Translations under genes and position numbers: made by a program
NCBI GenBank assembly: GCA_043804895.1
Contig: JAZDIN010000041.1
Span: 1 to 13,829 of the forward strand
From: Candidatus Altiarchaeota archaeon
GTDB lineage: Archaea > Altiarchaeota > Altiarchaeia > IMC4 > SCGC-AAA252-I15
Reading direction: 5' to 3'
DNA length: 13,829 bases
Part shown: positions 1,028-12,439 of the stretch, piece after piece
How the letters are laid out: each line of letters opens with the position of its first letter
Numbering within the stretch: the stretch's first letter is position 1
Notes under the pieces: model-generated
Seen by the model: the letters and a program-made list of their open reading frames with translations, nothing else
What the model was told of the DNA's origin: nothing
The model's database searches: none

Positions 1028-1339
1028 ATGCCCTTGCGAGATATTAACTTTATGGTTGAGGAAGTAAAGCTTCGGTTAAACAACTGCTGCCTCGGGCACC
1101 ACAGGGCCATGATAGACGGCGTCTACCGTTGCATGCTGACCAACATCGTAGCCTGCGGCAACAAGACGAAGCAAGACGATATCGGACTGAACATCTGTAA
1201 GCTACAAATCGACTGCCACAACTGCAGAAGATACCACGGATGGCTCGCAACAGGCATACCAGCCGAAGAGTGGATGGAACTGGAATGGATTGGCGGCCCC
1301 AAAAAGAAACCCAAAGTCAAACATGCGAAAAAACACTAG
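1028..1339 (+). CDS. Hypothetical Cys/His-rich protein, possibly metal-binding
   Basis: 103-aa ORF filling the gap before the convergent MATE gene; CCLGHH and CHNC motifs, basic tail; start codon uncertain. Confidence 0.55.
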   Translation: MPLRDINFMVEEVKLRLNNCCLGHHRAMIDGVYRCMLTNIVACGNKTKQDDIGLNICKLQIDCHNCRRYHGWLATGIPAEEWMELEWIGGPKKKPKVKHAKKH

Positions 1340-1340
1340 A

Positions 1341-2660
1341 CTACTCCCCCCTATCCCATCCGCCGTATCTGAAGAGTGCCATGCTGATTATCAGGTACAG
1401 TACTAGGTTGAATGTGATACCAGCCCATATTCCAGGTACGCCGTAGATTGTCGACAGCCAGTAGCATATGGGTAATGGCAGGAATGTTCGCAGAACCTTC
1501 AACATTAGGAGCTGTTTTCCTTTCCCGGCCGCGACGAGGACTGAGCCGAAGCATAGGGCGAATCCTAATGCAACCTGGCCTGGGGCGGTTATCCTCAGGA
1601 ATGATATGCTGTATTCTATCACAGGCGCCGATGAAGTGAAGAATTGGACAATATCTGCGGCGAAGACATAGAAGATAAGCCCGATTCCGCCCATTATGGT
1701 TGCGGCCAGGAATCCTCCTCTAACTACTGTTTCCTTCGCACGGTCGTATTTTCCAGCCCCGATGCATTGGCCTGCTATGCTCACGACTGCAGTCGATATT
1801 GCTGCTCCTGGCAGGCTCCCTAGGCTGTACATCCTCATGCCGATTGTTGATGCTGCTAGCGCTCCAGTCCCGAATAAGCCGACGATTGAGGTTTGGATGA
1901 CATAAGCGATGCTCATACTCAAGTTCGACAGGGACATAGGCAGAGCTAACGAGTAGATGTCCCTAATGTGCCTGAAGTCGTATGTGAAGCAGTTGAAGTC
2001 AGGCCTAACCCAGGAGTTTCCGGAAAACAAATAGCTGGCGAGGTAGAGTAGGCTATAGAGCTGGGATATTACTGTCGCAATCGCCGCTCCTCTAATGCCC
2101 AACCCAAAAGTGAAGATGAATAACGGATCAAGAATAACATTCAGTATGTTGGAGTAAACGCCAGCTTTCATGACGACTTTCATCTCCCCCTCGGCCGAGA
2201 CAATCCCTGTCAATACAAGTCCCATGAACTGGAACGCTGAGAAAAACAACAGCACGTTCAGATATGCCAGTGAATCGTCCATCAGGCTAGCTTTGGCACC
2301 CATGAAATCCAAAATTGCCGGCGCAGTAAGAAGCAGTATAACCGATAATATTATGCTGACGACAACCGCTGATAGGATGCCGTGTTCTGAGGCTATTTTA
2401 GCCTTACCGTACTCCTTAGCTCCGATAAGCCGCGACACCACGGAGGTTACACCTGCACTGACGCCGGAACCCAACATCATCACAAAAAACACAACTTGGA
2501 ATCCAAGCCCTACGGCAGCTAGGGCCTGTGAGTTAATCTTCCCCACGAAGAAGGCGTCAACAAGGTTTAACATACTGCCCATCGCCAGGGTAATAACCAT
2601 CGGCAGGGAAGTCCGATAGACTGTCTTCAGTATGTCACCTTCAGTCAAATCAACGCCCAT
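1341..2660 (-). CDS. MATE family efflux transporter
   Basis: 439 aa, about 12 TM segments; DLTEG, NLVDAFFVG, NVILDPLFIF, GIRGAAIAT motifs. Confidence 0.95.
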   Translation of the reverse strand: MGVDLTEGDILKTVYRTSLPMVITLAMGSMLNLVDAFFVGKINSQALAAVGLGFQVVFFVMMLGSGVSAGVTSVVSRLIGAKEYGKAKIASEHGILSAVVVSIILSVILLLTAPAILDFMGAKASLMDDSLAYLNVLLFFSAFQFMGLVLTGIVSAEGEMKVVMKAGVYSNILNVILDPLFIFTFGLGIRGAAIATVISQLYSLLYLASYLFSGNSWVRPDFNCFTYDFRHIRDIYSLALPMSLSNLSMSIAYVIQTSIVGLFGTGALAASTIGMRMYSLGSLPGAAISTAVVSIAGQCIGAGKYDRAKETVVRGGFLAATIMGGIGLIFYVFAADIVQFFTSSAPVIEYSISFLRITAPGQVALGFALCFGSVLVAAGKGKQLLMLKVLRTFLPLPICYWLSTIYGVPGIWAGITFNLVLYLIISMALFRYGGWDRGE

Positions 2661-2663
2661 AGG

Positions 2664-3089
2664 TTAACCTCTTACAGTTTTTTCTACTGTCTTGGCTAGC
2701 TTGTCTATTACGCCCTTAATGTCTGCCTCTCTTCTTTTTAGGAATCCGCTCGCTAGTGGTTCTCCGCGGTATTGTATGTCGTTCCTTATCTCCCTCATCT
2801 GGTTTATGAGTTCTAACTCGTCTTTTCCAAACTCTGGGTGGAATTCCTGCAGGAAGCTTATCAGGCATTCGTGGCTGTAGCTTTTGTAGCCTCTGCTGAA
2901 GAGTAATGCTGTGGTTAGCTCCTTTATGGACTCATAGTAGTCCTCGACTATGAATTCTGGATCCTCAGTTTGCCTCCTCCTAGCGATTGAGTTAAGGCGT
3001 TTGACTGCCAGTTCTGTCATGGCTTTAGCCCTCTCGTTGTCTGGTCTGATGGCTTTAACTTTCTCTTTCATGCAGTCCGTCCACTTCAT
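2664..3089 (-). CDS. HEPN-domain protein (putative toxin partner of MNT)
   Basis: 141 aa helical protein, YYESIKE, SHEC and RNDIQY motifs; start overlaps the MNT stop (ATGA). Confidence 0.8.
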   Translation of the reverse strand: MKWTDCMKEKVKAIRPDNERAKAMTELAVKRLNSIARRRQTEDPEFIVEDYYESIKELTTALLFSRGYKSYSHECLISFLQEFHPEFGKDELELINQMREIRNDIQYRGEPLASGFLKRREADIKGVIDKLAKTVEKTVRG

Positions 3090-3610
3090 TGTTTCACCTT
3101 CAGGAACCCTTTGAGGACTATTCCATTAGCGAGATTGTTTATGAATTCCGGGGTTAGTTTTCTCATGTCTGATTCGAAGAGTAGGTTGACCTTTCTGTTG
3201 AACTCCTTTTCATACCTTCCTATTTCTATTTTGACTTTTTCAGATTGTACAAAAATGTCGATGTCACCTCTTTCATCGTCTCTTCCTTCCACAGCGGAGC
3301 CGTACAATACTATGCAGGTTGGCCTGCATTTTTCTTCAAGTTTTTGTATGAAACCCGTATCCTCTATCTGGGCCAGCAGATCGTTTCTTTTGTAAATTCT
3401 TGTTTTTTCGGAGTCAATTAGCTTATATCCAGGGTATACTCCGTGCTTGACTTTCTCGAGGAAACCCTTCTTCTCTAATGATCTGACGTGGTTTCTGGTT
3501 GAAGGAAGTGACACTCTAGTGTATCTTACCAATTCTCGAAGTTGGAATACTCTTGATGGTGAACGGAAGAATACCCTTAGGATTTTATACCTGTTAAAGT
3601 CTTGATACAT
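3086..3610 (-). CDS. wHTH-fused minimal nucleotidyltransferase (MNT antitoxin-like)
   Basis: N-terminal HTH (LRELVRYTRVSLPSTRNHVRSLEKKG) and GS-x10-DID motif (YGSAVEGRDDERGDID). Confidence 0.88.
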   Translation of the reverse strand: MYQDFNRYKILRVFFRSPSRVFQLRELVRYTRVSLPSTRNHVRSLEKKGFLEKVKHGVYPGYKLIDSEKTRIYKRNDLLAQIEDTGFIQKLEEKCRPTCIVLYGSAVEGRDDERGDIDIFVQSEKVKIEIGRYEKEFNRKVNLLFESDMRKLTPEFINNLANGIVLKGFLKVKQ

Positions 3611-3612
3611 TT

Positions 3613-3640
3613 TTATATCACTTGATATAATATTATATCA
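3613..3640. promoter_or_regulatory. Putative autoregulatory operator of the MNT-HEPN operon
   Basis: Three TTATATCA units in alternating orientation (TTATATCA-ct-TGATATAA-ta-TTATATCA) between the start codon and a TATA-like TTAAATA (3645-3651, minus strand). Confidence 0.6.
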
Positions 3641-3745
3641 TAAGTATTTAAGCTCTTGCCAAAAGACCAATGGAAAACACCCCTCGAATTGTTTTCCGTT
3701 ACTCTCGCCTTGCTTGTTTTTACTGGGCTTCTGAAGTTCCCTTTA

Positions 3746-4900
3746 ATGTTGAAGGGTAAAGGCTACTACCTGAAGAAGCTGACCTCACAGATGCGGCTGA
3801 AATCCGTTGACGTAGGCCGTAAGATGGAGGGTACTACTCCTCCCTCAGTGTTTGTGGGAAGCTGGAACTATCCTAAGGTTTATGCAGGTCCCATGTTCAC
3901 GCCATACCACGGCGACACCTCACTCTTTGACACGCCTGAGAGGTGGATTCCAGAGCAGGTTACGACTGAAGGCATAATCGACTTCCGGCTTAACATGGTC
4001 AGGGGCAAGGAGCCGGTCAAGGTCACAGACGTCGAAAGCCGCTTCGTCGAGAAACTCAGAGAAGTCTCCATGGCATCAGGCTCAGTGGAAGGCGAAGCCC
4101 AATTCACAAAACCCCCAGTGGGCCGCAGCTTCAGCGACGAACATCTCCCATACGGTCCCAGCGCCATGTTGGATGAGTTTGAGGTGGACGGCTGCAGGTG
4201 GGAGCGTAACCTTGAGAAGGCACACTATGACAGTGATTTGAACGCTTCTGACGCTGTGGTTGAATTGCATTCCAAAGGTGTTGAATTCTCCAGGATACAA
4301 AAAGCCTTGTCTGTGGGCGCCTTGGGCGTTCGTCGGAGGAGGCGTCTTGTCCCGACACGCTGGTCCATCACAGCATGCGATTCAACTCTTGGTGGAAGAC
4401 TTCTTGACGAGGTAAGACACTACGGTCTCTTAGACACCTATCATGTCTACGAGTTCTCTAGTCTCAGCAACTACTACGCAGTCATACTCATGCCCACAGC
4501 ATGGCAGTACGAGTGGATGGAAGCATACCTACACGTCCTCGGCCCAGAGGAGTTGATTTTCAGCGATTGGGAGTCTAACATCGGAAAAAGAGGATACTCA
4601 CGAGTCGGCGGATACTACTACAGCTGCAAATTCGCAGTACTCGAAGCACTCGCAAGGATGAGAAAACAAGCCGGTGCGATAATCCTAAGGGAGGCCTACC
4701 CCGGTTACATACCCCTTGGCGTATTCAACGTTCGCGAGAACGTGAGGTCCGCGCTTGCGCAGCATTGTCTGGAGTTTCCGACTCTACGTGATGCGCTAGC
4801 CCACGTCTCAACCAAAATGAAGCTTCCAATCTCCCGATTCATCCGCGAAAGCAACCTACTCAAAGACCTGCTCACGGGAAGACAGACGACGCTAACATGA
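3746..4900 (+). CDS. nreA: Nre family archaeal DNA repair protein
   Basis: [33 protein letters not shown] and [10 protein letters not shown] motifs, C-terminal QTTL PIP-like motif; ATG 3746 preferred over TTG 3656. Confidence 0.88.
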
Positions 4901-5311: not shown

Positions 5312-5701
5312 AAGGTCGTCCTGGACACAAACATCTTCATCTCCGCCATATTCTGGGGTGGAATTCCAGAGAAGATACTAGAATACCTCAGCGGGGGTAG
5401 GTTCACATTAGTCTCATCAGATGAGATACTCGATGAGTTAACCGACGTCCTGACGGAATATGACATGCCCGTCGCAGATGTGCTGGTTTGGCGGCGCTAC
5501 CTCCTAGCGAATTCCATGCTCGTGAAGCCAACAGCAAAGATTGAAGTCTGCACTGACAAGAAAGACGACAAATTCATTGAAGCTGCAAATGCCGCCAACG
5601 CAGACTACATAGTCTCCGGGGATAAGCACCTCCTAAGACTCAAAGAACATCAACAGACAAAAATACTCACAGCAAGGGAATTCCTAAAACTCCTAGATTA
5701 A
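5309..5701 (+). CDS. vapC: PIN-domain (VapC-like) toxin
   Basis: MKVVLDTNIFISA, DDKFIEAA and IVSGDKHLL acidic PIN motifs. Confidence 0.92.
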   Translation: MKVVLDTNIFISAIFWGGIPEKILEYLSGGRFTLVSSDEILDELTDVLTEYDMPVADVLVWRRYLLANSMLVKPTAKIEVCTDKKDDKFIEAANAANADYIVSGDKHLLRLKEHQQTKILTAREFLKLLD

Positions 5702-7809: not shown

Positions 7810-8790
7810 TCACTCGCCCAGGACTCCATACTTATGCGTGAGGTTTTCCTTGGTCTTCTGCAGTATGTCCCTCCCCACTGGGCTGTTCAGATGGGTTGCG
7901 TACTCGTATGTGTGCATGAAGGTTCTTAGCGCGTTAGCCGCTGTCCTGTGGCTCCTTATCCTTATGCCCCCCTGTATGTCGTTATGCTCATCCCGCATGA
8001 ATATTATGAACTCCACCGGCTCCTTCTGCTGGACGATAGCCACACCAAGCCCGTGGGGGCTGTCAATGTAGCGTATGTCCAGGTTCTTGTGCGTTTCCAT
8101 CTGGGTCCTCAGTTTATCTATCGTAGTCAGGCTCTCCTGGTATGCTATCTTCGGGTCGCCGTATGTCCTGAACGCGTGGTTGAACAGCGTGTCCATGTTA
8201 AGTTCTGTCAGGATGTTCATCTGCGTTTTTTTGTTTTTGAGCGTCTGCCACAGCTTCTCAGCGTACGGCTCCCTCCCAAGGGTGTGAGTCATCTCCCTGC
8301 TGTATGCTATGGTCGGGAAGTCGGTCACAACATAAAATGCATCCGACTTCTCAAGAGAGTCCGCTAAAGCAAGGTAAAGTTGCTCGCCCTCCAGGTAATG
8401 TATGTCAGGCTGCTCCTTACGATACGTCAGCTCCTTGAAGAACTGCTCAATCTCATTCTGCGTCCTCTCACAGTCCTCCACATCCTTCCTCAAACCCTGC
8501 TTCGATTCCTCGATCGCACCCCTGATTCCCTCCTGGTCCAGCGCATACTCGGCCAGTGCTGCCCTCACTATGACCTTCTTGTTCTGCAATGTCTTCAGTA
8601 TGTTGAAGAGGTTCGGCTTTATGATTATCTTATTGTGCTCAGTCCTGTACTCCCTCTGGATGTTCTTAGGGGTCGGCTTCACTCCACGATTCCTAAGCCT
8701 GTAGATGACCTTAACAATATCATACTGCTGCTGGGTTAGGCTGGTCCATCTCCTAAAGTTGATCTCATCCACGCTCAACATTCTGCACAC
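7810..8790 (-). CDS. Putative TrmB-like transcriptional regulator (N-terminal wHTH, coiled coil, C-terminal alpha/beta domain)
   Basis: LTQQQYDIVKVIY...PNLFNILKTLQNKKVI resembles a wHTH, followed by a charged helix and IHYLEGEQLY; start is GTG 8790 or ATG 8781; function inferred. Confidence 0.55.
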   Translation of the reverse strand: MCRMLSVDEINFRRWTSLTQQQYDIVKVIYRLRNRGVKPTPKNIQREYRTEHNKIIIKPNLFNILKTLQNKKVIVRAALAEYALDQEGIRGAIEESKQGLRKDVEDCERTQNEIEQFFKELTYRKEQPDIHYLEGEQLYLALADSLEKSDAFYVVTDFPTIAYSREMTHTLGREPYAEKLWQTLKNKKTQMNILTELNMDTLFNHAFRTYGDPKIAYQESLTTIDKLRTQMETHKNLDIRYIDSPHGLGVAIVQQKEPVEFIIFMRDEHNDIQGGIRIRSHRTAANALRTFMHTYEYATHLNSPVGRDILQKTKENLTHKYGVLGE

Positions 8791-8805
8791 AAATATATGA
8801 ATTGA

Positions 8806-8826
8806 TACTATAATCTATAGTACTAT
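8806..8826. promoter_or_regulatory. Overlapping palindromes upstream of the TrmB-like gene
   Basis: TACTATA-ATC-TATAGTA (8806-8822) and ATAGTACTAT (8817-8826). Confidence 0.45.
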
Positions 8827-8875
8827 CCTTTAATATAATACCTAATTCTGGGTTTGCACATTAACTCTAAGATTC

Positions 8876-8961
8876 ACTTAACATATCGGCTTATGCGAAG
8901 TCCACGAAGTGGATTTGGGAAACAGAAGTGCAACGAGGTTTCTGCATAAGCCGTGTTAAGT
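8876..8961 (-). other. attC-like recombination site
   Basis: Minus strand reads ACTTAAC (RYYYAAC) acggc TTATGC-A-GAA ... TTC-GCATAA gccgatat GTTAAGT (GTTRRRY); 86 bp, one extrahelical base, internal TCCAC-GAA-GTGGA hairpin; lies downstream of the deaminase stop. Confidence 0.7.
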
Positions 8962-9029
8962 GAGCCGAAGGCGAGAGTGCAACGTGCCGACGAACAGCAA
9001 AGCTGTGAGGAGCGTAAATTTTGGCGGCT

Positions 9030-9494
9030 TTACTGCGACAAGTCAAACAACTTTAGACATTCATTTCTAAGAAATCCTTCAACCAATTCGAGTTTTGGAG
9101 TGCCTTTTTTAAGAACATCTTTGCAGGGTATACCAATCTGTCTCCATGAGAAATTCTTTCTTTGTCTTTGCTTTGCATCTTCGATAAAAGCTCCAAAAAC
9201 AATTCCCTTCATTTTTGCCCAAATTGCAGCAGACGCACACATTGGACAAGGTTCATGTGTAGAATAAAGAATACATCCTTCTAAGTATTTTGAATTTAAG
9301 TTTTTGCAAGCATTTCTTATAGAAACAATTTCAGCATGAACTGTTGGATCATTTTCATGCTTTAAATGTGTTGTTCCTGTAGCAATAATCTCATCATCTT
9401 TAACAATTACTGCACCTAAAGCGTAATCTCCATTTTTTGCAGATTCCTTAGCAAGTTCTATTGCTTTTTGCATGAATTCCTTTTTTGCTTGCAT
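9030..9494 (-). CDS. Zinc-dependent nucleoside/nucleobase deaminase (TadA/GuaD-like CDA superfamily)
   Basis: HAE and PCPMC motifs; GC visibly lower than neighbours (20/60 in line 9061-9120). Confidence 0.93.
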   Translation of the reverse strand: MQAKKEFMQKAIELAKESAKNGDYALGAVIVKDDEIIATGTTHLKHENDPTVHAEIVSIRNACKNLNSKYLEGCILYSTHEPCPMCASAAIWAKMKGIVFGAFIEDAKQRQRKNFSWRQIGIPCKDVLKKGTPKLELVEGFLRNECLKLFDLSQ

Positions 9495-9516
9495 AAATCT
9501 AATAGAATAATTAGAG

Positions 9517-9524
9517 ATATAAAA
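9517..9524 (-). promoter_or_regulatory. TATA box of the deaminase gene (leaderless spacing)
   Basis: TTTTATAT ending about 23 nt before the ATG at 9494. Confidence 0.55.
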
Positions 9525-9547
9525 GTCTTGTGGCCGCCAAAATTTAT

Positions 9548-9587
9548 TTCACTTAACAACAATTAAGCGACAAAAAGTCCGCTTAAT
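9548..9587 (-). other. Second core site with hairpin (truncated attC or attI-like)
   Basis: TTCACTTAACA (9548-9558) repeats 8873-8883 exactly; adjacent hairpin on minus strand ATTAAGC-G-GAC-TTTTT-GTC-GCTTAAT; no RYYYAAC partner on the far side. Confidence 0.55.
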
Positions 9588-9642
9588 CCTCTAATCTAGT
9601 CATTATCCAGTACTTCTTATAAATGTGCAAACCCGCCTAATT

Positions 9643-9864
9643 CTACAACTTATTACCTAGTTCTTCCCTCGTCATCCCAACATGTTCCAGAATATTCAGT
9701 AGCGTGCCCTTCTTGAGAGTATCGTGTAAGGGTATCGTAACTCTGTTGAATGGATGCGTTATCCTCTTTAAAGTGACATGGCTTCCCTTTCGCGAATGTA
9801 TGACATACCCCTCATGCAGAAGCAGTTTTATAATCTCCTCACCAGAAACAACGGGGAGTTTCAT
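9643..9864 (-). CDS. hicA: HicA family toxin
   Basis: LPVVSGEEIIKLL...RKGSHVTL...VTIPLH...KKGTLLNIL. Confidence 0.93.
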   Translation of the reverse strand: MKLPVVSGEEIIKLLLHEGYVIHSRKGSHVTLKRITHPFNRVTIPLHDTLKKGTLLNILEHVGMTREELGNKL

Positions 9865-10226: not shown

Positions 10227-10313
10227 ATGGCTGAAACATCGGTACTAGCAACCTGCGTGGCACTGCTCGGCCTTGACCTTGCCATACACTTCAAGATTTG
10301 GATGAACTCGTGA
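10227..10313 (+). CDS. Putative 28-aa hydrophobic small protein
   Basis: MAETSVLATCVALLGLDLAIHFKIWMNS; preceded by GGTGG and by TTTTATA at 10191-10197; stops 8 nt before the next ATG. Confidence 0.4.
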   Translation: MAETSVLATCVALLGLDLAIHFKIWMNS

Positions 10314-10321
10314 GGGAATGT

Positions 10322-12439
10322 ATGACACAAGGCAGAGCGAAAGGACAAGCATCAGTGGAACTCATATCATACCTCGGGCTTTTCATGCTAGCCTTGGCTG
10401 CGGCGTTAATCTACTTCTATCCAGACTGGGAGACTAAGAACAGGTTCAGCACAGCGGAAGTCACAGTATCTGACATCAGACAGACAACAGACAACGTCTA
10501 CACATCAGGACCCGGCCGGAGGGAGACGATAACAATTCGGGTTCCTTCAGGAGTGAGCGGAACGCAGGCGTCAGACAATCGTATTCTCATGCGACTTCAG
10601 CTTCCAGGTGGCGGGACGTCAGACGCATTGGAGGTTACGAAGGCGCCTCTTAAAGGGTACATTCCAACGCAGGAGGGAACACACCAGCTCACCATAGAGT
10701 ACATGAACTCTGGGTTCGTGGTTCTTGGCAGTGGCCTAAGTATCGAACCATCCTTCACTGAGTTGAAGACCACTCCGGATAATCGGACGAACTTCACAGT
10801 AACGGTGTCAAACTCAGCTGACAGGACAATCTCTGCGATTAACGTGTCAGTCAGCGGACAGGAAAGCTGGTTCACCCTAAATGAAACAGGATTCAGTCTA
10901 AACAAAGGCGAGGATAAGGCATTACTCATACAAGTAACGACTCCCGGGATGATACTCCCAATAACATACACGAATTACCTCAAGGCTGAATCTGCTGACG
11001 CATACGCCGAAGCCACAGTTAACGTCATAGTCGAGGGTGTCGTGTGCGGCGATACAGTAAAAGAACTCCTAGAGTCATGCGAGACCAGGACACCATTCAC
11101 GTTCCCGGACAACAACAATCCGTACTGCCCCAACCCCGGGGGTGGCGGAGGAAGCGTGCAGTGTGACGCAACCAACACAAGATACAAGGCATACGACCAA
11201 CACGGCCAGTGCCTTTCCGACTGCACCTGCACTCAGGACACGCCAGAATGGGTGACCTGTGGTAGCGGATGCGTTGACCCCCAATACTGCAACAACTGCC
11301 CGCACTGCTTCGACGGAGCGCAAAACTGCGGTGAAACAATAATTGACGGCGGAGGAGCATGTCCGATTTGCGACGGCACTGATGACATACTGGAAGGATT
11401 CCAATGCTCTCTAGGGCAGACGCGCCAGTGCGGAGGCCCAGAATGTTCAGGGACACAAACATGTGAAAGGATTGGAACAGCAGGTTGTGGATGGGGAGTC
11501 TGCTCAACATCCGGGCAACACTGCCAGAACGGGGTTAAATGCTGCACATGCGCTGGAGACCCAACAAACCCGGTAAAGACCTTCAACGCTACATGGGCTC
11601 CAACAGATTGCGCAGGAAACGTGACGACATGCGGCTTCCCAACAACCTGCCAGGCCGGAACATACACTCAGATTTGCACTGGCTTAGACGCATGCTCCGC
11701 GAACCTCTCAGACATTAGGGCATCCAACATCTCAGGCTGCGTCGGCCAGACGTGCGGGGAGGCTCAAAACCAGTGTTACGACAACGTGTATCCCTGCCAC
11801 GGCAGTCAGACGACCTTCACATGCTCTATGGAGGGGTCCTGTCAGAGCACGACTCAGGAGAACCTGTTAGCCTGCGGCTCGGAGTCGAGTTGTCTGCCGC
11901 CCCAGGCACTCATCTTGCACAAGCTCGACATCAACGACCCGAGTGATTATGTTGATGCGCCAAAAAGCTACGCAAGTGTGCCCGGCTTCTACTTCAACTG
12001 GCCTGCCATCTGCACCGACGCCAACTTTAAAATCACAACCTACACGCAGATGTATCATACTGACCCCGGAGCCTATGCGCCGTATATGAACGGTACGCTA
12101 TACCTCTACGGTAAGGGCTACCACATATACAATCAGTTCTACCATGATGACTGCCACTGGACTCAATGTCAGCATAATAGTGATGGGATTAAGCGGAGTT
12201 ACATCAGAATCGGCACAAATGCCAGCAACTACCTCGAGTATACCTCTCCTGTCTGGAAACCGGAATGGCAGAGGGGGTCCATAAACCTGGAAAATCCTGC
12301 CCGGAAGAGAGGTACAGTCAACTGGAGTGACATAAGATACCTACAATTCGGTTATGTTGTGAATAGGGAGTGCCAGTCGACAGACAGCGGATGCGGGTAC
12401 TGCCACATGTGGCTCGACTCAGTCACCTTAGAAAGATGA
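10322..12439 (+). CDS. Large class III signal peptide protein; putative minor pilin/adhesin with Ig-like, Cys-rich and C-terminal beta-sandwich regions
   Basis: MTQGRAKGQ-ASVE plus hydrophobic helix; beta-rich Ig-like segment; Cys-rich segment; C-terminal W..GSINL / VNWSDIRYLQF / MWLDSVTL pattern. Confidence 0.8.
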   Translation: MTQGRAKGQASVELISYLGLFMLALAAALIYFYPDWETKNRFSTAEVTVSDIRQTTDNVYTSGPGRRETITIRVPSGVSGTQASDNRILMRLQLPGGGTSDALEVTKAPLKGYIPTQEGTHQLTIEYMNSGFVVLGSGLSIEPSFTELKTTPDNRTNFTVTVSNSADRTISAINVSVSGQESWFTLNETGFSLNKGEDKALLIQVTTPGMILPITYTNYLKAESADAYAEATVNVIVEGVVCGDTVKELLESCETRTPFTFPDNNNPYCPNPGGGGGSVQCDATNTRYKAYDQHGQCLSDCTCTQDTPEWVTCGSGCVDPQYCNNCPHCFDGAQNCGETIIDGGGACPICDGTDDILEGFQCSLGQTRQCGGPECSGTQTCERIGTAGCGWGVCSTSGQHCQNGVKCCTCAGDPTNPVKTFNATWAPTDCAGNVTTCGFPTTCQAGTYTQICTGLDACSANLSDIRASNISGCVGQTCGEAQNQCYDNVYPCHGSQTTFTCSMEGSCQSTTQENLLACGSESSCLPPQALILHKLDINDPSDYVDAPKSYASVPGFYFNWPAICTDANFKITTYTQMYHTDPGAYAPYMNGTLYLYGKGYHIYNQFYHDDCHWTQCQHNSDGIKRSYIRIGTNASNYLEYTSPVWKPEWQRGSINLENPARKRGTVNWSDIRYLQFGYVVNRECQSTDSGCGYCHMWLDSVTLER

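Follow-up and report, generated by a model that had tools for sequence, protein, structure and literature searches.

What kind of mobile unit is formed by a single deaminase gene that lies between two copies of a short direct repeat and ends in an elaborate hairpin, and which enzyme would move it? The question is raised by positions 8873-9558 of contig JAZDIN010000041.1 from a Candidatus Altiarchaeota archaeon, a stretch of 13,829 nucleotides referred to here, at its full length, as the window; the assembly it belongs to measures 1.58 Mb, is 88.7% complete and has a GC content of 51%. An earlier note, made by reading the window, described the locus as an integron-like cassette and as the substrate of an IntI-like or XerA-like tyrosine recombinase. 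Our analysis indicates that 8873-9558 is probably a mobile cassette of an integron-like system, akin to the integrative mobile elements exploiting Xer (IMEX), that uses a XerA-type recombinase through a folded single strand and dif-like sites. In the window, the hairpin site is on the plus strand and the cargo deaminase gene on the minus strand.

The cassette is a 675-bp unit within 8873-9558. Its two ends share 11 bp, as had been stated earlier: the direct repeat TTCACTTAACA occupies 8873-8883 and 9548-9558, 675 nt apart from start to start. The left copy (core repeat a1, plus strand) forms the cassette end at which the crossover presumably takes place and also the 5' arm of the R-box of a folded recombination site, P1, which spans 90 nt on the plus strand (8874-8963). 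In this site two perfect inverted pairs of 10 nt each, both 100% complementary (8874-8883 with 8954-8963, and 8887-8896 with 8944-8953), are separated by a one-sided 3-nt bulge, TAT, at 8884-8886. The outer pair is the R-box, the inner pair lies in the L-box (8887-8897/8943-8953), and the branched loop beyond it holds two inner hairpins on the plus strand, P2 (8898-8916) and P3 (8918-8943). The perfect pairing, the one-sided bulge and the branched loop of the earlier description are all confirmed by this count. The core sites ACTTAAC (8876-8882) and GTTAAGT (8955-8961) match the integron consensus RYYYAAC/GTTRRRY, and the fold has a z-score against shuffles of -4.9 as RNA and -4.8 as DNA.

Each half of this hairpin resembles a dif site, so that P1 consists of two inverted dif-like sites paired with one another. 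The 3' half (8939-8966, plus strand) has the 11-6-11 geometry, TTTCTGCATAA / GCCGTG / TTAAGTGAGCC, and carries the box GTTAAGTGA; its inverted partner, the 5' half (8871-8901, minus strand), has two 11-nt arms around a 9-nt spacer made up of 6 nt and the 3-nt bulge. This 5' half had previously been compared with Xer/dif arms and given a spacer 2 nt too short; the resemblance stands, while the geometry is corrected to 11-6-11 at 8939-8966 and a partner with a 9-nt spacer. Among ten aligned family members the GTTAAGTGA box is identical in all ten, whereas the partner box keeps just TAAC and several members break the YYY of RYYYAAC. The same alignment holds no clear extrahelical base within the L-box, and the base after TTATGC that had been taken as extrahelical is probably paired, as G·T in the window, G-C in eight and G·U in two of the ten members. 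The 9-mer TCACTTAAC occurs nine times in the genome, about the chance expectation, and by itself is therefore no signal and useless as a marker.

The hairpin and the 60 nt that follow it form a conserved element of approximately 150 nt with compensatory changes. The conserved 3' domain (8964-9014, plus strand) comprises a mini-hairpin, P4 (8964-8972), the 9-mer AGTGCAACG (8976-8984), CGACGA (8988-8993), a second hairpin, P5 (8994-9006), and GAGGAG (9007-9012). A stretch 88% identical to window positions 8913-9015 exists in a genome of another family, with compensatory changes in two small hairpins. Furthermore, an exact pattern placed on the 3' half matched 13 records, from Methanolliviera, two Methanosarcinales, Methanophagales (anaerobic methanotrophic archaea, ANME-1), Hadesarchaea, Woesearchaeota, a single-cell genome of the pMC2A384 group, five metagenome-assembled genomes (MAGs) labelled 'uncultured archaeon' and one MAG labelled Neomarinimicrobiota; it was not found in a viral contig collection. 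Element segments that are predicted to be unpaired are near-identical in sequence across these phyla.

Covariation analyses indicate that the fold itself is maintained. In the RNAalifold consensus of a MAFFT alignment of ten family sequences, a long stem and a 3' hairpin are recovered, 11 of 25 pairs show changes on both sides with pairing kept, and the P5 hairpin covaries. A covariance model built from this alignment, R1, yielded 34 hits; pairing extends to 93.1% of their cells, compared with 75.3% after shuffling, and this level is somewhat inflated by the fitting of the alignment to the model. Both sides have changed in 18 of the 25 pairs (10 of 11 in the L-box), and the covariation score is 0.368, compared with 0.146 for shuffles, none of which reached it in 500 trials, and at most 0.088 for slid controls. 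The structure of the element is under selection. In a set of 41 genomes of relatives, the own genome included, R1 elements are detected at E <= 0.001 in 22.

The element is not tied to one gene. The own genome holds two R1 copies, both single units outside any array. A BLAST search of the own assembly places the second on contig C11. This copy agrees with that of the window at its left end and over a right end of about 90 nt (82-91% identity), its hairpin stem differs in sequence, and it holds an unrelated cargo, a 263-aa membrane-anchored protein of no known family. The further hairpins beside unrelated genes that the earlier note had asked for are found both in this copy and in the arrays of other archaea.

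The 9-mer AGTGCAACG is present twice per element, in the P3 loop (8927-8935) and in the linker between P4 and P5 (8976-8984), both of them unpaired contexts, and most of the family retains both copies. In its core the 9-mer is similar to the inner portion of an outer terminal repeat (GTGCAAAC) that is described below, and it may be a protein-binding box. The MAG labelled Neomarinimicrobiota, a bacterial group, contains a strong R1 hit of 115 bits on an AT-rich contig of 8.2 kb (L025, 7193-7362), which represents either spread across domains or a mis-binned archaeal contig.

The strand that folds leaves its mark on the family. Across the 34 sequences, 51 cells are G·T and 12 are A·C, the latter corresponding to G·T on the opposite strand. 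Hairpins closed by a C-GNA-G triloop number 31 on the element strand and 2 on the other, against a shuffle mean of 1.07 and a maximum of 5. Both counts favour the window plus strand, antisense to the cargo, as the folding strand.

In other archaea the elements form arrays. Series of R1 elements on one strand, spaced by 0.5-3.2 kb and with mostly antisense cargo, are found in genomes G049, G050 and G053 and at loci L027, L031, L032, L035, L036 and L082; three elements lie on an ANME-1 contig, three on a Woesearchaeota contig and four on a metagenome contig, with pairs on several others. The genes between them are mutually unrelated and include a peptidase, a Fic protein, a MATE transporter and small open reading frames without family matches. 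The same site thus ends one-gene units in other archaeal arrays and flanks an unrelated gene on C11, which bears out the integron-like cassette layout proposed for the window.

Each cassette also carries what we term a private clamp: the sequence directly after the element is the reverse complement of the sequence directly before the next core box. In the window the arms are TAAATTTTGGCGGC (b, 9015-9028, plus strand) and GCCGCCAAAATTTA (b', 9533-9546, plus strand), 14 nt long and 100% complementary, which form a perfect inverted repeat hugging the cargo gene. In a comparison of each of 11 cassettes with 200 shuffles, the 14 nt of the window were reached by none of its 200, and clamps of 17 nt (L056), 15 nt (L036), 13 nt (L031), 10 nt (L027) and 9 nt (L035) are likewise significant, with p <= 0.035 in every case. 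Arm b' abuts the core repeat. The clamp indicates that the unit boundary lies in the 11-bp repeat, and the 675-bp circle predicted earlier is therefore the excision product to be expected.

The upstream junction of the cassette links it to Xer recombination. There, at 9546-9573 on the plus strand, lies a dif-like 11-6-11 site, ATTTCACTTAA / CAACAA / TTAAGCGACAA, which includes the second core repeat (a2, 9548-9558) and which we call the docking site. Next to it is hairpin c (9563-9586, plus strand; placed at 9562-9587 when it was first noticed), a third copy of the arm that faces the right arm of the docking site; this hairpin shows compensatory changes in G032 and is present in the C11 copy. 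The arms of the docking site agree at 20 of 22 positions with those of a site that a Woesearchaeote (G050) carries 230 bp upstream of its xerA; the first cassette lies on the far side of that site. Related sites, often with the same adjoining hairpin, are found 50-200 nt upstream of xerA in G003, which belongs to the genus of the window, and in G008, G013, G023, G037 and G039; these xerA-proximal sites are candidate dif sites. The layout of cassettes, dif-like site and xerA recurs in G050, G037, G008 and G039, and in G037 and G039 the full order is element, antisense cargo, clamp arm, site and xerA. In G026 no such site was seen upstream of xerA, and in the own genome the docking site is an orphan with no xerA beside it. 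Some archaea are described as having a linked xerA/dif module, with archaeal dif sites of the 11-6-11 type, in the available sections of PMC5357621.

Two further loci touch on docking sites. In G050 (L051), three copies of a unit of about 77 nt that terminates with a dif-like half site are present: one separates xerA from the first cassette (4413-4490), and two follow the first element in tandem (5459-5535 and 5536-5612). The docking region of this genome appears to be duplicated. At L019 (contig C11 of G014, reverse complement, approximately 1300-4250), an island of 2.9 kb, with about 28% GC against about 52% for its genome, has the same docking site at its end, ATTTCACTTAA / CAACTA / TTAAGCGAGAT; its main gene is enclosed by an 11-nt clamp, and the site is not followed by a xerA.

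Tyrosine recombinase genes lie near elements in three of the five array-bearing genomes (G049, G050 and G053); in the other two, G051 and G052, none was found on the same contig as an element. In G050 the gene is 1.4 kb from the first of three elements, and in G053 one XerA-type gene is 2.5 kb from an element (contig C17) while another is 10 kb from two elements on a different contig. On the XerA model NF040815, for which the cut-off is 220, the full-length array-adjacent recombinases have scores of 214-240 bits, and they match the integron-integrase model TIGR02249 in two pieces, skipping model positions of approximately 180-230, the IntI-specific segment. Of the two enzymes suggested before, the XerA-like recombinase is therefore favoured by model scores and dif-like sites, whereas the IntI-like one loses ground with the missing segment. 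In G049, an ANME-1 MAG, three truncated XerA-type fragments were observed near R1 elements (L053, 3783-4558; L054, 3697-4276): those on C199 and C46 lie within 0.3 kb of an element and are placed and oriented as cargo, and that on C74 is about 3 kb away. As a separate observation, xerA is only 200-1000 nt from a contig end in G003, G008, G013, G015, G018, G023, G024, G025, G037 and G039, which fits assembly breaks at variable or repeated cassette arrays and proves nothing.

These data bear on the most obvious alternative, that the unit is a classical integron cassette whose hairpin is the attC site of a true IntI encoded elsewhere or lost. An attC hairpin of about 57-141 nt is imperfect and consists of an R box, an unpaired spacer, an L box in which some bases are extrahelical, and a variable loop, and integrons use its bottom strand. 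The window site fits RYYYAAC...GTTRRRY, measures 90 nt and has R and L boxes and a variable loop; its irregularity is the one-sided 3-nt bulge between the boxes, with no clear extrahelical base in the L-box. The order of open reading frame and site and the same-strand arrays are those of integrons, and the strand that folds is antisense to the cargo, like the attC bottom strand. Archaeal integrons and arrays devoid of an integrase have also been reported, Hadarchaeota included, in the sections of PMC9668308 at hand. But TIGR02249 has a hit over its cut-off in none of the 41 genomes of the relatives set, 22 of which carry R1 elements, and in none of the five array-bearing genomes, and the split hits lack precisely the IntI-specific segment. 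Moreover, the family keeps only TAAC/GTTA at one end and several members break RYYYAAC, the invariant domain of about 60 nt and the private clamps are foreign to attC, and at the upstream junction a dif-like 11-6-11 site stands where an integron would have attI beside intI. We therefore consider a classical integron cassette unlikely.

In a second alternative, the plus strand of the element of about 150 nt would encode a non-coding RNA, which might regulate the cargo as an antisense RNA or guide some enzyme, and the repeats would be by-products. It draws on an RNA fold of -63.1 kcal/mol for the plus strand against -49.1 for the minus strand, on the G·U pairs and covariation that favour one strand, on tandem G·A motifs beside P4 and P5, and on the near-identity across phyla of the predicted unpaired segments. 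The nature of the loops speaks for DNA: C-GNA-G triloops mark DNA mini-hairpins of exceptional stability, GNRA or UNCG loops are more usual in comparable RNA hairpins, and because the loops of the element are mostly C-GNA-G, single-stranded DNA is favoured over RNA. Searches for known RNAs gave nothing on the element: Rfam 15, which includes no attC family, has no match at gathering score over the window, the four weak matches at E <= 10 over 8780-9700 all fall within the deaminase gene, and a scan of the window for tRNA and tmRNA found no genes. No conserved promoter precedes the element, and in arrays a clamp arm and the promoter region of the neighbouring cargo stand directly upstream of it. 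An RNA gene would also account neither for the direct repeats and clamps nor for the arrays of unrelated AT-rich genes or the match to xerA-proximal sites, and we regard it as improbable.

The third alternative arises from a further layer of the locus, an outer unit with terminal inverted repeats (TIRs) at 8849-9635. Its left TIR, TGGGTTTGCACATT, occupies 8849-8862 and its right TIR 9622-9635 (both plus strand), of which 8850-8862 and 9622-9634 form a perfect 13-nt inverted repeat with 100% complementarity. Outside the TIRs, 8841-8848 and 9636-9643 are copies of an 8-bp repeat in direct orientation, CCTAATTC, which we take to be the outer unit's target-site duplication. A repeat search returns it in a 9-nt form, CCTAATTCT, at 8841 and 9636, and the register of an 8-bp duplication with a 14-bp TIR is our own reading. 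The C11 copy retains the left TIR and has its own flanking repeat, CAGTTAGG, different from that of the window, and the identity between the two copies ends exactly at these repeats, on the right at 9636-9643. On a third contig of the own genome (G000:C35:40682-40709) the outer terminal repeat stands alone behind CCTAACTC, together with about 15 nt of the sequence next to it, and resembles a leftover or one half of a TIR unit. In all, the own genome contains two full copies of the outer unit and one solo end. The three flanks, CCTAATTC, CCTAACTC and the reverse complement of CAGTTAGG, are alike.

From these features one could argue that the mobile unit is the whole of 8849-9635, a non-autonomous TIR transposon with a passenger gene, moved by a DDE transposase, and that the inner hairpins are incidental. 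The perfect TIRs with their flanking direct repeats, the C11 copy with the same ends and a repeat of its own, the solo end and the likeness of the three flanks, as for a preferred target, would all follow. Yet a BLAST search of the 49 genomes of the order did not find the TIR ends in any of the other 48, whereas the inner element is detected in 22 of the 41 genomes of the relatives set, and also in distant phyla, without such ends. In addition, the two copies hold different cassettes between identical inner boxes, an arrangement that would be expected of exchange at the docking site. A TIR transposon as the sole mobile unit accordingly has little probability in our judgement. The outer layer is probably real and additional to the cassette, not an alternative to it; it would be a small TIR element carrying the docking site, and as such a second, separate route for the spread of cassettes. 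Ribozymes, group II intron domains, box C/D or K-turn RNAs and IS200/IS605 ends were rejected, as their motifs do not fit, Rfam offers no match and no TnpA, TnpB or reverse transcriptase gene is nearby.

For a XerA-driven, IMEX-like cassette, the directly observed anatomy, family, covariation, strand bias, arrays and sequence match to xerA-proximal sites suggest a scheme whose recombinase, single-stranded DNA state and point of crossover we infer. A precedent is provided by CTX-phi, in whose single-stranded genome two inverted sites pair and mimic dif, according to the available sections of PMC5357621. In the cassette, the plus strand would fold into a hairpin that imitates duplex dif, with the R-box arm, a central region containing the 3-nt bulge and the L-box arm, followed by the two mini-hairpins. 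XerA would pair this folded site with the duplex dif-like docking site at 9546-9573 and exchange one strand at the border of arm and spacer, TTAA|CA. Replication would then fix the product, leaving the 11-bp repeat at both cassette ends. Run in reverse, the reaction would free a 675-nt circle in which b' and b pair, enclosing the whole site in a compact fold. The variability of the partner box beyond TAAC, next to an invariant GTTAAGTGA, fits a partner half that comes from the site last recombined with.

The cargo itself points to a foreign source. It encodes a 154-aa zinc deaminase of the cytidine/tRNA-adenosine deaminase fold (9030-9494, minus strand; PF00383, E = 1.5e-28), which scores 83 bits on the TadA model, for which the cut-off is 150. 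Its gene has a GC content of about 33% compared with 51% for the genome; the best homologue, 92% identical, is named as a nucleoside deaminase of a Woesearchaeota archaeon, and many further deaminase homologues come from Nanoarchaeota and Pacearchaeota. A metagenome deaminase with 52% identity lies between two R1 elements of a four-element array. Because of the AT-rich composition and the 92% identity to Woesearchaeota, a gene of DPANN type captured as a cassette fits these data, and the cargo may thus have come from a DPANN-like donor. A TATA-like box, TTTTATAT, recognized by archaeal promoter spacing, lies within the cassette 23 nt before the ATG of the cargo (9517-9524, minus strand). Directly to the right of the outer unit is a pair of HicA toxin and HicB antitoxin genes (PF07927 and PF15919; 9643-10085, minus strand), and the stop codon of hicA touches the right flanking repeat. 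The neighbouring open reading frames at 7810-8790 (minus strand, 326 aa) and 10298-12439 (plus strand, 713 aa) match no Pfam or NCBIfam family above threshold.

Several observations weigh against a XerA-driven cassette. The absence of an integrase from the window, which had been recognized from the start, extends to the whole 88.7%-complete assembly: no tyrosine recombinase with PF00589 was found in either, and the search for an IntI or XerA gene in the own genome that had been suggested came back empty. Of the four genomes from the same genus, whose assemblies are 70-92% complete, G003 alone has XerA. Most R1 elements are distant from xerA; in G026, a genome in one contig, nine R1 hits fall at seven places and one is within 10 kb of xerA, and a rough count over the 41 genomes gives about 7-8 pairs of R1 and xerA on the same contig within 10 kb, against about 3 expected. 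Because the assemblies are fragmented, the linkage of xerA to the elements is partly hidden. The generic 11-6-11 pattern with TAA/TTA inner ends occurs four times in the genome, with about ten expected under uniform composition, and since such a pattern is not rare, dif-like geometry alone proves nothing. The strand bias can be explained by single-stranded RNA equally as well as by single-stranded DNA, and the conserved domain of about 60 nt has no role in a model of XerA cassettes. The clamp is not significant in 5 of the 11 cassettes, mostly those bounded by weak R1 hits, and only 1 of 28 metagenome loci with deaminase homologues carries R1 elements. No empty site was found, as the two flanks of neither the window copy nor the C11 copy are contiguous in any relative; in G001 the gene beside the C11 copy has a different neighbour, and the flank loci of relatives contain no R1 element.

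Integrons are the textbook engine of bacterial gene capture and are defined by a dedicated integrase, while XerA is the universal enzyme of chromosome resolution. We tentatively propose, as a possibility that stops somewhat short of being probable, that the cassettes belong to an undescribed, archaea-wide 'integron without IntI', in which the housekeeping XerA and a dif-type site would serve as integrase and attI. The cassette would act through a single-stranded DNA fold of about 200 nt, made up of the dif-mimicking hairpin, GNA mini-hairpins, an invariant protein-binding domain and the private clamp; the docking site would be mobile on a TIR element and seed cassettes away from dif, and genes would be moved between DPANN and methanogen, ANME and sediment lineages. 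If true, this would account for the passage of small AT-rich genes from one archaeal phylum to another, show concretely by what path integrons may have evolved out of Xer/dif, help to predict what integron-finding tools miss in archaeal genomes and perhaps explain the frequent position of xerA at contig ends. No description of cassette arrays run by XerA was found in the literature, including the available sections of PMC9668308, PMC2958812, PMC8371274 and PMC5357621, where the comparison covered the running text and the dif sequences of PMC2958812 stand in its figures and supplements; the term 'IMEX' does not occur in the portion available of a 2021 review of archaeal tyrosine recombinases (PMC8371274).

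Among known systems, miniature inverted-repeat transposable elements are like the outer 8849-9635 unit in its 13/14-bp TIRs and 8-bp flanking direct repeats, and unlike it in that the outer unit bears a recombinase docking site and an exchangeable gene cassette. The pdif modules of Acinetobacter plasmids are small gene modules bounded by Xer-type 11-6-11 sites without a recombinase of their own. They are flanked by sites in inverted orientation that act as duplex DNA, whereas the cassette described here has direct-repeat bounds and a folded hairpin site.

With integron cassettes and attC the likeness is broader, extending to units of a single gene with a structured, imperfect hairpin behind it, the RYYYAAC/GTTRRRY boxes (in the window), a structure that is kept while the stem sequence varies, arrays on one strand and folding of the strand antisense to the cargo. 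The crossover would likewise fall in an outer box shared by neighbouring cassettes, and in relatives the recombinase gene diverges from the array. In contrast to integrons, the array-adjacent recombinase is of XerA type without the IntI segment and the docking site is 11-6-11 dif-like, and in contrast to attC the element site covers about 150-200 nt, with an invariant 60-nt domain, GNA mini-hairpins, a private clamp and no evident extrahelical bases in the L-box.

IMEX of the CTX-phi type, as presented in the available sections of PMC5357621, share with the cassette the lack of an own recombinase, the unit here encoding only the deaminase, and two inverted dif-like sites about 40-90 nt apart that fold into a dif mimic with an irregular centre. 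In these elements, too, insertion next to a dif-like site leaves a dif-like junction, and successive insertions can build arrays (PMC5357621, same sections). On the other hand, the 675-bp unit has no phage or replication genes, the units here consist of a single cargo gene in 0.5-3 kb, and the host enzyme would be a single archaeal XerA instead of XerC/XerD. Many copies lie away from xerA, and the cassettes add a conserved domain and clamps to the paired dif-like sites.

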